DNA of 64,000 nt, taken from Candidatus Marinacidobacterium sp. (GTDB lineage Bacteria; Acidobacteriota; Vicinamibacteria; Marinacidobacterales; Marinacidobacteraceae). Under the pieces are notes generated by a model, which was not told the DNA's origin, searched no databases, and saw nothing but the letters and a program-made list of their open reading frames with translations. Location of the stretch: positions 1-64,000 of the forward strand of contig CBDCRI010000001.1 of assembly GCA_965220965.1 (NCBI GenBank), given 5' to 3'. Shown piece by piece: positions 2 through 8,034 of this stretch (within the stretch, counting starts at the first letter, position 1; every line of letters starts with the position of its first letter). The position numbers and the translations under genes were made by a program.

Positions 2-1204
2 GTCCGGGGCCACTTGGCCATCTCCGGGATCCACCGGCTTGAGCGCCTGCCGGAGGGCTTGGAGGCGGACTCCCTCGTCGTCTCCAACTGCGCTTCGCTG
101 GCGGGCTTCGCGGAGTCCTGCCGGAGCTTTCGCACGCCGGGCGACCTGACGCTCAGCGGCTGTCCCCTGCTGCAGGCCTTCCCGGAGCGCCTCGAGGTCG
201 GGGGCGATTTGTGGCTGGAAGCCTGCCACCGGGCGTGGTCGGCTTCGGCGGGCGTGCCGGACTCGCTCAATGTGGCGGGGTCGGCGACCCTGGAAGGCTG
301 CGCGGGACTGGAGCTGCTGCCGGCGGACACGCGCGTGGGCCACTGGCTCAAGGCGTTGGGCTGCGCCCGCCTGCTGCGGCTGCCTGAGCGGCTGTCGGCA
401 GGGGCGCTGGTCATCTTGGACTGCGCCGCGTTCGAGGGCTTCGACAAGGACTGCCGGGACCGGGCGTTCCATGTGCGCGGCAACCTCGACTTCAGCCACT
501 GCCCCAGCCTGAGGCTCTTTCCGGGGGAGCTGTCGGTTGGCGGGCACTTCTGGATGCGGCACTGCGCGCGGGCTTGGAACCGGGAGTGCGGAAGCCACCC
601 GCCGGACAGCCTGCGGGTGGGCCGCTGGGCATCCATCGACGCCTGCGCCGGCCTGACCGCGCTGCCGGCGCGAATCAAGGTCGGCGAGGCGCTGAGCCTC
701 TCCGCGTGCCACGGCCTGGAGGCCGTGGGCCTCCCGCCGGCGCCGGGGCACGGCCGCCTGGAGGTGAGGCTGGGCTTTCAGATCCGCGGCTGCCAAGGGG
801 TGCGGCGCATCGACGACGTCGCGTTCACGAGCGCCGGCAGGCTGGAGGTCCTCGATTGCCACCTGCTCGAGGCCATTGGCACCCTCTCAGGCACCCTGTC
901 CGAGGGTTGGGTCACGAACTGCCCGGGGCTGTCGCAGTTGCCCGGCCGGCTCGCCCTGGAGGGGGACCTGGAACTGCGTGACTGCCCTCTGCTCGTCCAT
1001 GAGGTCGCAGTCGAAGGGCGCGGGCGCGTGGTCAGGGAGGGCTCCACCCCCGCTCAGCCCGCGGCGCCGGCCCCCGGCCGCGGCGCCCGGCCCCTGACCC
1101 CGGCCAACGCGCCGAAGGCGCGCGCCCAGTCCGCCCGCGCTTGCTTTAATCGGGCAACCGAACCCGCAGGGAGGCCGCCATGGCCCGCAAGACCCCCCGA
1201 ATGA
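2..1204 (+). CDS. Cys-rich leucine-rich-repeat protein, copy 1 (5' end outside window; 3' end frameshifted and reading through)
   Basis: Repeats of LxVGGxLxLxxCxxLxxLP; colinear and highly similar to 1180..2427. The TGA that ends copy 2 is out of frame here (cccctga at ~1091-1097). Confidence 0.85.
   Translation, partial: VRGHLAISGIHRLERLPEGLEADSLVVSNCASLAGFAESCRSFRTPGDLTLSGCPLLQAFPERLEVGGDLWLEACHRAWSASAGVPDSLNVAGSATLEGCAGLELLPADTRVGHWLKALGCARLLRLPERLSAGALVILDCAAFEGFDKDCRDRAFHVRGNLDFSHCPSLRLFPGELSVGGHFWMRHCARAWNRECGSHPPDSLRVGRWASIDACAGLTALPARIKVGEALSLSACHGLEAVGLPPAPGHGRLEVRLGFQIRGCQGVRRIDDVAFTSAGRLEVLDCHLLEAIGTLSGTLSEGWVTNCPGLSQLPGRLALEGDLELRDCPLLVHEVAVEGRGRVVREGSTPAQPAAPAPGRGARPLTPANAPKARAQSARACFNRATEPAGRPPWPARPPE
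1141..1191 (+). repeat. 51-bp LRR leader block, copy A (extended -10-like TGCTTTAAT, RBS GGGAGG, ATG GCC CGC AAG)
   Basis: ttgctttaatcgggcaaccgaacccgcagggaggccgccatggcccgcaag is identical at 1141, 2471 and 5481. Confidence 0.95.
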
Positions 1205-2427
1205 CCGCCGGCGAGGCACGCAAGGCCATCCAGGAGGGGCGCTGCCCCGAGGGCGCCGAAGTCTGGGACGACCTGGACCTTTTGGAGGCGTCCTGGCTTG
1301 TCCGGCTGCCCAAGGGGCTCAAGGTCCGGGGGCGCTTGAAGATCACCAAGTGCCACCGGATCGAGCGCCTGCCGGAGGGCCTGGAGGCGGACTTACTCCT
1401 CGTCTCCGACTGCGCGTCGCTGGCGGGCTTCGAGGAGTCCTGCCGGATCTTCCGCACGCCGGGCGACCTGCTGCTCAACCACTGCCCCCTGCTGCACGCC
1501 TTCCCGGAGCGCCTTGAGGTCGGGGGCGATTTGCGGCTGGAAGCCTGCCACCGGGCGTGGTCGGCCTCAACGGGCGTGCCGGATTCGCTCGACGTAAAGG
1601 GGGCGGCGACCTTCGAAGACTGCGGGGGACTGGAGAGGCTGCCGACGGACACGCGCGTGGGCGGCCGGCTCAAGGCAGTGCACTGCGACCGCCTCCTGCG
1701 GCTGCCGGAGCGGCTGTCGGCAGGGGCGCTGGCCGTCGAGAGGTGCGCCGCGTTCGAGGGCTTCGACATGGCCTGGCGGGACCAGGCGTTCCACGTCTAC
1801 GGCAACCTCGACTTCATCGCCTGCCCCGGCCTGAGGGTCTTTCCGGGGGAGCTGACGGTGGGCGGGGAATTCGGGATGCGGCACTGCGCGCAGGCTTGGC
1901 ACCCGGAGTGCGGAAGCCACCCGCCTTCCAGCCTGCGGGTGGGCCGCTCGGCAACCATCGCCGCCTGCGCCGGCCTGAGAGCGCTGCCGGCGCGAATCGA
2001 GGTCGGCGAGGCGCTGCGCATCTCCGCGTGCCACGACCTGGAGGCCGTCGGCCTCCCCCCAGCGCCCGGGCGCGGCAGCCTGGAGGTGGGGCGTTGCGTC
2101 GACATTGGCAGATGCCACGGGCTGCGGCGCATCGACAACATCGCGTTCAGGAGTGCCGGCCGGCTGTCGGTCCTCCATTGCGACCTGCTCGAGGCCATCG
2201 GCGCCCCCGCAGGCACCCTGTCCCAGTGCTTCGTTACGCACTGCCTAAGGCTTTCGGAGCTGTCCGGCCAGCTCGCCCTGGAGGGCGACCTCACCCTGCA
2301 CGACTGCCCCCTGCTCGTCCATGAGGTCGCGGTCGAAGGGTGCGGGCGCGTGGTCAGGTCGGGATCCACCCCCGCGCAGCCCGCGGCGCCGGCGCCCAGC
2401 CGCGGCGCCAAGGCGCCCTCCCCCTGA
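1180..2427 (+). CDS. Cys-rich LRR protein, copy 2 (415 aa)
   Basis: About 15 Cys-anchored LRRs, N-cap MTAGEARKAIQEGRCPEGA, C-terminus SGSTP...APSP, RBS GGGAGG, no signal peptide. Confidence 0.9.
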   Translation: MARKTPRMTAGEARKAIQEGRCPEGAEVWDDLDLLEASWLVRLPKGLKVRGRLKITKCHRIERLPEGLEADLLLVSDCASLAGFEESCRIFRTPGDLLLNHCPLLHAFPERLEVGGDLRLEACHRAWSASTGVPDSLDVKGAATFEDCGGLERLPTDTRVGGRLKAVHCDRLLRLPERLSAGALAVERCAAFEGFDMAWRDQAFHVYGNLDFIACPGLRVFPGELTVGGEFGMRHCAQAWHPECGSHPPSSLRVGRSATIAACAGLRALPARIEVGEALRISACHDLEAVGLPPAPGRGSLEVGRCVDIGRCHGLRRIDNIAFRSAGRLSVLHCDLLEAIGAPAGTLSQCFVTHCLRLSELSGQLALEGDLTLHDCPLLVHEVAVEGCGRVVRSGSTPAQPAAPAPSRGAKAPSP

Positions 2428-2470
2428 CCCCGGCCGGCGCGCCCGAGGGCCGCGCCCAGTCCGCCCCCGC

Positions 2471-6740: not shown

Positions 6741-6780
6741 GGCGGCCCAGCGCGGCCATCCACCCAGAGGAGGGAAGCCC

Positions 6781-8034
6781 ATGGCGAGCAAGCCCATCCC
6801 CATGACGCCCGAAGAGGCCCGCAACGCCATCCTGTCGGGCAGCTGCCCGGAGAACGCGGCGGTCGACGGGGAGTTGATGCTGTCCGTGGCGCCGCACCTG
6901 AAGGCGCTGCCCAAGGGCCTCAGGGTGCGCGGGTCGCTGACCCTCATGAAGTGCCACGGGCTGCGGCGGCTGCCGGAGGGCCTGGCGGCGGACGATATCT
7001 GCGTCCTGAGCTGCGCCGCCTTCGAGGGCTTCCATGACGCCTGCACGGACTTCGGGCTGCCGGGCGGCCTGGCCTTCATCGACTGCCCGTCCCTGACCCG
7101 GTTCCCGGCGCGCCTGGAGGCCGGGGGCGACCTGGTGCTCCGCCACTGCCCCGAGGCGTGGTCCTGGCCGGACGGGCCGGGCCGACGTCCGGGCAGGCTC
7201 AGGGTGGGCGGCTACGCCCACATCGAGCACTGCGCGGGCCTTTCCGGGCTGCCGACCGATACGCAGGTCGACGGGGAGCTGGCCGTGCGCGACTGCGACC
7301 GCCTCAGGAGCCTGCCGGCGGGGCTGGCCGCGGGCTCGCTCACCCTGAAGCGGTGCGCCGCCCTGGCGCAACTCCTGCCCATCGGCGGGCGGAGCCTGCG
7401 CCTGCCCGGCGACCTGAGCCTTGAGGCCTGCCCCGCCCTGACCGGCTTTCCGGGGGAGGTCTCGGTCGGCGGCGCCTTCCGCATGGCCAACTGCCCGCGG
7501 GCCTGGGCGGAGGGGCCGGGCCTTGCCGGCGCGCCGGACAGCCTCGTGGTGGGCGGCACCGCGGAGATCGTGGGCTGCGCGGGGCTGTCTGGGCTGCCGC
7601 GGAGGATGGCCATCGGCAAGAGCCTGGACATCCTGGAGTGCCACGGGCTCAGGCATTTGGGCTGGGAGGAGGAGCAAGCCTGCGAGCGAACGGCGGGCGA
7701 AGCGTGCCGGATCGTCGGCTGCGACGGCCTGCGGAGCGTGGACGGCCTCTCCTTCCGCGGCCGAGGCCGAGTCGAGATCCACCGGTGCCCCGTCCTCGAG
7801 ACCCTCGGCAGCGGCGTGCGCCCCCAGTTCCAAATCGCGGTCGTCGACTGCCTCCGGTTCGCGACGGCGCCCGAGGGCGTCGCCCTGTCCGGGCAGATGT
7901 TCGTCCACGGGTGCCCCTCGTTCAGGCAGTCGCCGCGCGTGACCGGGGGCGGGATGCTCACCCTCTCGGGCTCGACCCCGGGGGCGGCCCAGGCGGGGGC
8001 CGCCGAAGGGGCGAAGCCCGCGCCCTCCCCCTAG
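6781..8034 (+). CDS. Cys-rich LRR protein, copy 6 (417 aa)
   Basis: N-cap MTPEEARNAILSGSCPENA, LRR repeats, ends SGSTP...KPAPSP, RBS GAGGAGG. Confidence 0.9.
   Translation: MASKPIPMTPEEARNAILSGSCPENAAVDGELMLSVAPHLKALPKGLRVRGSLTLMKCHGLRRLPEGLAADDICVLSCAAFEGFHDACTDFGLPGGLAFIDCPSLTRFPARLEAGGDLVLRHCPEAWSWPDGPGRRPGRLRVGGYAHIEHCAGLSGLPTDTQVDGELAVRDCDRLRSLPAGLAAGSLTLKRCAALAQLLPIGGRSLRLPGDLSLEACPALTGFPGEVSVGGAFRMANCPRAWAEGPGLAGAPDSLVVGGTAEIVGCAGLSGLPRRMAIGKSLDILECHGLRHLGWEEEQACERTAGEACRIVGCDGLRSVDGLSFRGRGRVEIHRCPVLETLGSGVRPQFQIAVVDCLRFATAPEGVALSGQMFVHGCPSFRQSPRVTGGGMLTLSGSTPGAAQAGAAEGAKPAPSP

Follow-up and report, generated by a model that had tools for sequence, protein, structure and literature searches.

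A tandem array of leucine-rich-repeat-only proteins with a diversified strand face and a shared P-[S/A]-P terminus on a megaplasmid of Candidatus Marinacidobacterium sp.

At the start of contig CBDCRI010000001.1 of Candidatus Marinacidobacterium sp. (assembly GCA_965220965.1) stands a tandem array of paralogous leucine-rich-repeat (LRR) proteins, which raises the question of how such a repertoire diversifies and what it serves. The window analysed here (64,000 nucleotides) is the first 64 kb of this contig, designated C2 (363,302 bp, 73% G+C); the genome comprises two contigs, C2 and the chromosome C1, and 3.25 Mb. The original prediction, made from the letters of the window, saw a diversifying receptor, decoy, or effector library on a conjugative element. 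The array has evolved by tandem duplication and segment exchange, with the fastest change on the concave strand face of the proteins and a dN/dS ratio (ω) above 1 on that face in the youngest clade, and it very probably constitutes a functional LRR-only repertoire with a diversified face.

Positions 2 to 8034 of the window are filled by six plus-strand open reading frames (ORFs) of 400 to 417 codons, with the N-terminal stub of a further copy at 2510 to 2650, so the six paralogues of ~410 amino acids and the stub that had been predicted are all present (Table 1). However, the copy number is not six. The two ends of C2 share a 19-nt terminal overlap, and trimming it makes the 5'-open ORF 2-1204 intact; C2 is therefore circular, and the window begins inside the array. 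A tblastn search of the genome with the window proteins found the far-end copies (~339.4 to 363.0 kb of C2), and the array thus extends upstream, from C2:339,429 across the circular junction to window position 8,034, ~32 kb in total. Copies with the family N-terminus number 22, all on the plus strand (an internal ATG at 6946 is left out of the count). Twenty are full length (288 to 448 aa), in size classes of nine with 288 to 310 aa, one with 368 aa, and ten with 390 to 448 aa, and two are truncated (C2:353371, 236 aa; C2:356070, 145 aa). There are also an additional frameshifted copy (~C2:347.5-348.3 kb), a degenerate remnant (351.7-352.2 kb), and a second N-terminal stub (C2:350203-350433). 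The genes that break up the array encode a type II C5-methyltransferase, a HipA-like ORF, and a few unknown ORFs, and ahead of the array lies a Fic/DUF4172 protein that matches the PADLOC SoFic model (E 1.3e-34).

Long antisense ORFs run over the LRR genes, of up to 479 codons in window 1-8034 (minus strand) and of 993 codons upstream on C2. They look like artefacts of the 72% G+C content, and their G+C pattern by codon position is wrong.

Every copy opens with an N-terminal helix of consensus MTPEEAReAIL.G.CPEGA.V.G.L and continues with 11 to 16 repeats of 20 to 21 residues, as measured by anchor spacing, with the consensus LxxLPxxLxVxGxLxLxxC. These repeats have the residues of an LRR core, namely, leucine at -5, isoleucine, valine, or leucine at -3, cysteine at 0, and leucine at +3. 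The alignment contains 15 Cys-anchored repeat columns in the long copies, which together with the N-terminal helix of the model described below agrees with the predicted build of an N-cap followed by about 15 such repeats; the short copies differ from the long ones by an insertion of about five repeats in the latter. No hydrophobic stretch was seen at the N-terminus (the highest 12-residue Kyte-Doolittle mean was at most 1.8 over the first 41 aa), and none of the Pfam and NCBIfam families scored over its cut-off on the window copies, the sub-threshold matches being only LRR_1 and the LRR part of XopL. Both scans were therefore in line with the prediction of proteins lacking a signal peptide and an enzymatic domain. 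The NEL (PF14496), F-box, and DUF6745 (PF20530) models had no Pfam match in the six window copies, and in the alignment no domain follows the LRR and no NTPase (NB-ARC or NACHT) or effector domain is fused in any of the 22 copies.

For the 415-aa copy F18, an AlphaFold2 model computed from an alignment of 20 paralogues has a mean predicted local distance difference test score (pLDDT) of 91.7 and a predicted template modelling score of 0.88. It contains a helix at residues 10 to 18, then one or two short strands per repeat, and ends in a disordered tail (residues 404 to 412, pLDDT < 50). The top matches in the VIA wide structural search were all LRR structures, led by the LRR-ID of RPP1 (Z 21.3), Leptospira LIC11098 (Z 21.1), and YopM (Z 18.3), and SlrP (Z 14.2) and SspH1 (Z 13.1) appeared among the lower ones. 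Foldseek gave no match in the PDB at an E value of 0.001 or better (the best, at 3e-3, was a wheat nucleotide-binding LRR receptor [NLR]), and the ESM Atlas yielded only scores of 0.90 or less, none of them usable.

The original prediction held that the linkers of the first two window copies, F17 and F18, are conserved while their strand segments differ, and the linker and strand strings that it quoted are present in the F17/F18 alignment. We anchored the repeat register on the 15 conserved Cys columns and defined the face as positions -6, -4, -2, and -1 relative to Cys, i.e., x3, x5, x7, and x8 of the canonical LxxLxLxxC. Between F17 and F18, residues are identical at 22 of 59 face positions and at 281 of 356 other positions (Fisher p 3.9e-10). 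Among the youngest copies, the quartet F15 to F18 (72 to 79% identical), the identity per register is 38 to 47% at -6, -4, -2, and -1 and 83 to 94% at -5, -3, 0, and +3; the exposed strand positions are 37 to 49% identical versus 79 to 84% elsewhere, and the framework Leu, Cys, and Pro residues are 83 to 97% conserved. The hypervariable face is thus correct, far beyond chance. When the register is mapped onto the F18 model, 15 of 15 repeats place -5 to -2 within a strand, and the two aliphatic core residues fall between -6, -4, and -2, so that in the model the latter three must point away from the core. By both the register table and the strand alternation, the variable residues are the canonical exposed strand positions that had been named.

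Gene-wide dN/dS was ~1 by the Nei-Gojobori method (0.66 to 1.27). These values were set aside, since third codon positions of ~90% G+C deflate dS and inflate the ratio. With F3X4 codon models, gene-wide ω was 0.28 for the ten long copies and 0.48 to 0.64 for the quartet. The selection test was a fixed two-partition model, in which the codons of the quartet were split into 59 face codons and 355 others. In IQ-TREE partition runs under five models, ω was 2.4 to 5.4 on the face and 0.35 to 0.62 elsewhere. A face ω of 1 was rejected (p 0.028 with GY+F3X4 and 0.0007 with MGK+F3X4), and so was an ω of 1 off the face, where the estimates were 0.35 to 0.47 (p 1e-13 with GY and 7e-9 with MGK). Because these runs use the synonymous changes of the face codons only, we wrote a joint model of two partitions in which branch lengths, kappa, and codon frequencies are shared. 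It gave the quartet a face ω of 1.50 (GY, p 0.008) or 1.77 (MG, p 0.00013) and a non-face ω of 0.35 or 0.47, respectively, and two ω values were better than one at p ~1e-21 to 1e-24. Pairwise estimates for the face were 2.29 for F16/F18 (p 0.0011), 2.34 for F15/F16 (p 0.0006), and 1.60 for F17/F18 (p 0.034), and the four other register classes of the quartet had ω values of 0.21 to 0.65. In terms of ω, the face evolves about four times faster than the rest of the protein, and the framework is under purifying selection. The array genes look live, as judged by the off-face ω of 0.35 to 0.47 and by a Shine-Dalgarno-like motif 4 to 18 nt upstream in 20 of the 22 copies.

The older parts of the array are less informative. 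In the partition analysis of the ten long copies, the face ω was 0.94 and the tree of the face codons was 27.9 substitutions per codon long; the value, being saturated, is uninformative either way. The other older comparisons are also saturated (summed neutral branch length, 2 to 25 per codon), and their face ω is still 1.4 to 4 times the non-face value.

How the copies came to differ can be read in part from their arrangement. The tandem order on the same strand, the conserved intergenic leader before several copies, and the length classes made by repeat blocks point to unequal crossing-over as the probable process behind the array. In addition, the first 45 to 60 codons of F17 are 90 to 91% identical in DNA to those of F21, while the remainder of F21 is 53 to 71% identical to any copy, and within the quartet the nearest copy switches every 30 to 60 codons. 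This pattern is, as far as the alignments tell, one of gene conversion or recombination between copies.

The prediction had likened the diversification to that of the variable lymphocyte receptors (VLRs) of lampreys, and here it did not hold. Contigs of four public runs from four studies were compared with window 1-9000, and all four runs had pieces identical to parts of the array. Zero differing letters were found over 2313 nt in run X2, over three pieces within 6925-9000 in run X3, and over five pieces of 151 to 260 nt in run X4. Most contigs with other letters were short and had 24 to 56 differences, and we read them as paralogous copies at 85% likeness or more, not as variants. The identity of contig pieces from separate runs argues for a stable germline repertoire, and these contigs gave no sign of somatic change like that of VLRs or diversity-generating retroelements in window 1-9000, although contigs drop rare variants, and low-level variation would not show. 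Diversity thus resides between fixed germline paralogues that exchange segments. One local difference concerns a ten-G run at window 3983-3992, after the F19 stop codon and ~130 nt upstream of F20, where the X1 and X2 contigs show a one-base difference from the window; an assembly error and a length-variable tract are both possible.

The second feature of the family lies at its C-terminus. In 16 of the 20 full-length copies, the protein ends exactly in P-S-P or P-A-P after a disordered stretch rich in Pro, Ala, and Arg. The remaining four comprise the near variants QAP and PSPGA and the copies F15 and F17, in which a frameshift just before the motif has removed it. To census C-termini, we took all stop-to-stop ORFs of at least 100 codons with coding-like G+C at the three codon positions. 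Among these, the P[SA]P end is present in 31 of 168 on C2 and in 7 of 1526 on C1 (odds ratio 49, p 3.7e-26); among the ORFs failing the coding filter, the corresponding counts are 29 of 1855 and 38 of 12724. No other C-terminal tripeptide on C2 comes near PSP (16) and PAP (15) in frequency. The serine of the tail is encoded by TCC, TCG, AGC, or AGT, the stop codon is TGA or TAG, and there is no conservation downstream of the stop. It follows that the motif is kept at the protein level, and an origin of the tail at the DNA level, as a terminator or a recombination site, was ruled out on the same grounds.

The tail is shared beyond the array, as 19 of the 31 tail-bearing ORFs of C2 are not LRR proteins (examples in Table 1). 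We searched these 19 with Pfam, together with the Fic ORF, which ends in PGP. Seven of the 20 had matches, to a DEAD/RecQ-type helicase, PIN, DUF3085, AbiEii, AAA_16/AAA_22, HD_4 (just under the cut-off), and Fic, and the other thirteen had no Pfam match. P[SA]P may be a replicon-specific C-terminal tag. We found no description of such a terminus or of the LRR family in the portions searched of the literature on Acetobacter and type IVB secretion system (T4BSS) megaplasmids, interbacterial T4BSS effectors, and C-terminal signals of type IV secretion systems (T4SSs). Outside the array, the 541-codon ORF at C2:239773-241398 ends in PSPSP and matches the LRR profile weakly (E 7.8e-27); it is, to judge from this match, a second, divergent LRR protein type on the plasmid.

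A comparable case exists in a distant bacterium. The only plasmids of PLSDB with several matches to the LRR proteins are two Acetobacter megaplasmids, with 16 and 15 places. The Acetobacter persici plasmid pAC1084_1 (NZ_CP014688.1; 526 kb, 52.8% G+C) has 32 hits to the family profile in about a dozen open frames, and three of the four LRR ORFs read end in P[SA]P (PSP, PAP, and PSP). On the whole plasmid, P[SA]P ends occur in 17 of 526 non-overlapping ORFs and in 0 of 442 rejected overlapping ORFs, and PSP (10), PAP (7), PTP (5), and PEP (4) are its commonest C-terminal tripeptides. This census shows that the tail is not a G+C artefact. The LRR proteins of A. persici and Acetobacter pasteurianus, annotated as hypothetical proteins, resemble those of the array in repeat type (profile E values down to 2e-24), in being LRR-only (230 to 400 aa), and in having multiple copies per replicon, and those of A. 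persici also share a replicon with T4BSS genes. However, they are only 23 to 31% identical to the array proteins, are mostly dispersed or in small clusters, and have another N-terminus, and the flank of the tail is acidic in A. persici, whereas it is basic on C2. The A. persici plasmid is annotated with DotA/TraY, DotI/IcmL, DotH/IcmK, and DotG/IcmE, lacks a relaxase, and is classified by MOB-suite as non-mobilizable. C2 and this plasmid also share distant homologues (23 to 48% identity), among them DnaE2, a PilQ-like ATPase, and HipA.

In the first 64 kb of C2, which the gene annotation covers, lie DotI-, DotH-, and TraI/DotC-like T4BSS components, a secretin, a GspE/PilB-type ATPase, and an SNase-type nuclease (Table 1), a set that we take to resemble the tra, pil, and nuc genes of IncI1 plasmids. 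The predicted conjugative element therefore stands as regards these components. However, Pfam models found no relaxase (PF03432, PF08751), no coupling protein (PF10412 and PF02534; TrwB, VirD4 type), and, with one model, no DotG/VirB10-type (TrbI/VirB10) protein in the whole genome, so that "conjugative" is unproven, and the T4BSS of C2 may be incomplete or very divergent.

The family is rare around its source. At E 1e-8 or better, it was found in none of the 27 other genomes in its GTDB family, two of which are congeners, and the same is true of DotH in these 27, which suggests that the megaplasmid was horizontally acquired. Nor was the LRR family found in 400 other genomes sampled from the class (E 1e-20 or better, four candidates scored per genome). 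A HMMER scan of 1.84 billion representatives returned 9,505 proteins with an E value of 1e-3 or better; 2,246 reached 1e-10 and 234 reached 1e-30, and nearly all are long multidomain proteins with the same 21-residue consensus. Among the best 53 non-self profile matches within the size limit, 25 carry a NEL E3-ligase domain, 4 a DUF6745 domain, and 3 a DnaJ domain. Beyond the genome, only three LRR-only look-alikes with the same N-terminal helix were seen, namely, P0043, P0044, and the partial P0102, and two of the three terminate in SPSPG or SPAP. As a query in a word search, P0043 returned itself and two weak matches only, and a search for its locus found no relative in genome contigs or metagenome contigs. 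In the word-based search beyond the genome itself, and likewise on two Deinococcus plasmids, the nearest matches were LRR plus DUF6745 (PF20530) proteins, which occur in Planctomycetota, on Deinococcus plasmids, and in metagenomes. They have the same 21-residue repeat type (27 to 31% identity) but also a C-terminal DUF6745 and another C-terminus, and they are single genes as far as seen; DUF6745 was not mentioned in the literature searched.

Among characterised systems, YopM and the NEL effectors of the IpaH/SspH/SlrP group come close. They share with the array the 20- to 22-residue bacterial-type repeats, the LP motif, and the N-terminal helical cap, and in them the LRR is the target-binding module of an injected protein. 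YopM is LRR-only as well, and it superposes on the F18 model with a root mean square deviation of 8.8 over 357 residues. The array proteins differ in having Cys for Asn at the anchor, no NEL domain, another terminal tail, 22 or more tandem copies on one replicon instead of one to few, and a T4BSS, not a type III secretion system, as the candidate injector. The array proteins also differ from the GALA and CC-LRR effectors in having no F-box match and repeats of 20 to 21 residues, whereas the Cys-containing CC-LRR repeats have roughly 24 to 26. The LRRs of plant NLRs and lamprey VLRs are also solenoids with a diversified concave face, and the RPP1 LRR and the G10 and WRR4A resistosomes were among the structural matches, but the array has no NB-ARC or TIR domain and gave no sign, in the contigs compared, of cassette assembly or somatic variation; the likeness is one of fold and mode of evolution, not of family. 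As a large family, the array has a parallel in the LRR or tetratricopeptide repeat (TPR) proteins with F-box or BTB domains of the Parachlamydiaceae, which are described as large, species specific, partly tandem (up to 13 members), and thought to be effectors, with ubiquitination domains, global dN/dS values of 0.29 to 0.63, and no positive selection (Domman et al. 2014, PMC4209131). Compared with what is described there, the array is LRR-only, larger, located on a plasmid, and marked by a face-specific ω above 1 in a young clade.

What the repertoire serves can be answered only tentatively. The reading that we prefer, with slightly less than even confidence, is that of a germline repertoire of exported LRR-only binders with a diversifying face, which are recognised by their tail and are probably T4BSS substrates. 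About two dozen such binders would be carried on a horizontally acquired, circular 363-kb megaplasmid, their number having grown by tandem duplication. Rather than cytoplasmic housekeeping proteins, they would be exported substrates recognised via the terminal tail common to ~19 unrelated proteins of the replicon, and the most likely carrier would be the type IVB (Dot/Icm/IncI-like) secretion system encoded on C2. Once delivered, the copies would each engage a different protein, or a different variant, from a set of targets in the recipient cell, as a scaffold, an inhibitor, or a decoy in an arms race. As to the choice between receptor, decoy, and effector left by the original prediction, the shared C-terminal tail and the NEL-fused relatives tip the balance towards effectors or binders that are exported. 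These relatives, together with a build like that of YopM, speak for a eukaryotic target. On the side of a bacterial recipient or competitor stand the IncI-like apparatus, the neighbours of defence type, and those tail-bearing proteins that resemble toxins (PIN, AbiEii, and Fic). This analysis gave no indication of a host-associated lifestyle for the source bacterium. A bacteria-killing T4BSS has been reported in Pseudomonas putida (PMC9519443).

Several observations weigh against exported, diversifying T4BSS substrates. The tie between the tail and the T4BSS consists of their co-location on the same replicon, in two cases, and nothing beyond it, and the relaxase, the coupling protein, and the DotG/VirB10-type protein were, as stated above, not found in the genome with the Pfam models used. 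The C-terminal Dot/Icm translocation signal is known as a Glu-rich block with small or hydrophobic residues near the end, and the tail, a basic flank plus P[SA]P, differs from it. Several tail-bearing proteins (RecQ-like helicase, PIN, AbiEii, and AAA_16) have the look of ordinary plasmid or defence proteins and not of effectors. As for selection, the dN/dS above 1 on the face stands, significantly, in the quartet but is never significantly above 1 in older pairs and groups. The face ω of older pairs is 0.48 to 1.36; it is below 1 for F02/F03 (p 0.008) and F19/F20 (p 0.024) and marginally so for F10/F11 (p 0.085), and in three older multicopy groups it is 0.32 to 0.89. The ω above 1 thus comes from a single clade of four recombining copies, of which F15 and F17 have lost their tails by frameshift, while F16 and F18 both keep them intact. 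Since the quartet members are mosaic, tree-based ω is disturbed, but pairwise ω is not. Finally, the face partition was set after the per-register table had been seen, though it is the canonical LRR partition.

The chief competing explanation keeps the proteins in the cytoplasm, as immune sensors that would recognise phage or plasmid proteins in an NLR-like but split manner and would signal through a separately encoded partner such as the 1202-aa P-loop/ankyrin protein next to the array or an AAA_16 protein. It would account for the LRR-face diversification, which is typical of immune receptors, and for the defence-type surroundings (the SoFic-like Fic protein, the type II C5-methyltransferase, the HipA-like ORF, and AbiEii in the window), and the top structural match is the LRR of a plant NLR. 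However, it leaves unexplained the replicon-wide P[SA]P tail, which is also found on the Acetobacter LRR homologues, and the closest relatives, which are NEL effector fusions and not STAND proteins. Moreover, all 22 copies lack a fused NTPase or effector domain, F18 and F03 match none of the families of PADLOC-DB 2.0 at E 0.001 or better, and the 1202-aa neighbour matches no PADLOC model. We consider such a sensor set unlikely, at about one chance in a handful. Export or display by another route, i.e., by a type I system, the nearby type IVb pilus machinery, or vesicles, with the tail as a mark recognised by a protease, chaperone, or sorting enzyme that the plasmid encodes, is quite unlikely in our judgement. 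It is compatible with a tail unlike any described T4SS signal, with no match in the portions of the literature searched, with a secretin and a GspE/PilB-type ATPase in the window, and with the lack of a coupling protein among the Pfam matches in the genome. It has to contend with the absence of a signal peptide and of any known sorting motif and with the presence of DotI and DotH on both tail-carrying replicons, and we know of no type IV pilus system that exports cytoplasmic proteins of this kind.

That the array is a neutrally decaying or selfish duplication, whose frames stay open by chance at this G+C content and whose variable positions are just those under the weakest constraint, seems very improbable. 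The Nei-Gojobori ratio of ~1, the cheapness of open frames at 72% G+C (witness the antisense ORFs), the four or more members that are truncated, frameshifted, or stubs, and the face ω at or below 1 in older copies would fit decay. However, codon models that take account of G+C give gene-wide ω values of 0.28 to 0.64, an ω of 1 is rejected off the face, and the framework Leu, Cys, and Pro residues are conserved; a face ω significantly above 1 is not given by neutrality. The Shine-Dalgarno-like motifs in 20 of 22 copies and the terminal motif kept in 16 of 20 with varied codons likewise stand against it.

Expanded LRR effector families are known, and positive selection on the LRR face is textbook knowledge for eukaryotic immune receptors; to our knowledge, it has rarely been shown for a bacterial repertoire. 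New here are the size of the array and its location on a plasmid, a Cys-anchored LRR-only family with its own N-cap and without a Pfam model, the face-specific ω above 1, and, most notably, the P[SA]P terminus found across the replicon, which of all these features is the one that could turn out to be new in kind. The array is a compact case, a plasmid library of at least 22 members with a high-confidence predicted fold and a measurable face-specific signal, and it could serve as a natural scaffold series for the study of how binding specificity evolves. A more far-reaching proposal, which we regard as possible but doubtful, is that the P-[S/A]-P-COOH end acts as a hitherto undescribed signal for export through a type IVB system borne on plasmids and marks a whole set of plasmid-encoded substrates, namely, LRR binders, a helicase, PIN, AbiEii, an AAA_16 ATPase, and many unknowns, on the megaplasmids of distant bacteria; the LRR array would be the diversifying targeting library of that set, injected into recipients, competitors, or protists to neutralise variable targets. 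If P[SA]P is an export signal, sequence data alone could suffice to catalogue the substrates of T4BSS plasmids from the environment, and the question would arise of what T4BSSs outside Legionella deliver, and to whom.

Table 1. Array members in the window, other tail-bearing ORFs, and secretion-related genes of C2 (window positions equal C2 positions)
Feature	Position	Strand	Remarks
LRR-only paralogue F17	2..1204	+	Window holds residues ~49 onward; start at C2:363141, 448 aa
LRR-only paralogue F18	1180..2427	+	415 aa; 15-16 Cys-anchored 21-residue repeats; disordered tail, PSP end; modelled copy
N-terminal stub of further copy	2510..2650	+	Matches profile positions 1-47
LRR-only paralogue F19	2762..3982	+	406 aa, PSP end
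LRR-only paralogue F20	4122..5366	+	414 aa, PSP end
LRR-only paralogue F21	5520..6740	+	406 aa, PAP end; putative 5' conversion tract with F17
LRR-only paralogue F22	6781..8034	+	417 aa, PSP end; last copy of the array
SNase-type nuclease	34116-34667	+	
DotI/IcmL/TraM-like T4BSS component	39568..40104	+	PF11393, E 2.9e-19, over cut-off
DotH/IcmK/TraN-like T4BSS outer-membrane core component	40465..41928	+	PF12293, E 3.5e-29
GspE/PilB-type ATPase	56892-58829	-	
PilN/MshL-type secretin, type IVb-pilus-like	60527-62188	-	
TraI (IncI1)/DotC-like T4BSS component	63357..63998	-	PF16932, E 2.2e-27; ORF reaches window end
Non-LRR P[SA]P ORFs, examples on C2	72301-72951, 78636-80105, 125798-127771, 192465-193481		
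Non-LRR P[SA]P ORFs, further examples on C2	230758-231789, 239773-241398, 261496-262917, 277432-279186		

Some neighbouring genes deserve mention. The ORF adjoining the array (8192-11800, minus strand; 1202 codons) has a P-loop-like N-terminal part, a Cys-rich, Zn-ribbon-like middle, and one ankyrin match (E 9e-5), with no other match in Pfam, NCBIfam, or PADLOC. A ParA-type partition ATPase (19076-19819) and an AbiEii-type nucleotidyltransferase toxin (23214-24092) lie on the plus strand, and a second AbiEii elsewhere on C2 has a P[SA]P end. Farther along, a DnaE2-type homologue of the DNA polymerase III alpha subunit (47219-51079), an unknown 626-codon ORF (52526-54406), and an RNase T-type exonuclease (55065-55820), all on the minus strand, may form an error-prone polymerase cassette of the plasmid; the Acetobacter plasmid also has a DnaE2 homologue. 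Finally, a single stop-to-stop frame at 37568-38974 (minus strand) contains both a fatty-acid desaturase match and an ISL3 transposase fragment and may represent an insertion-disrupted gene or two genes read through.

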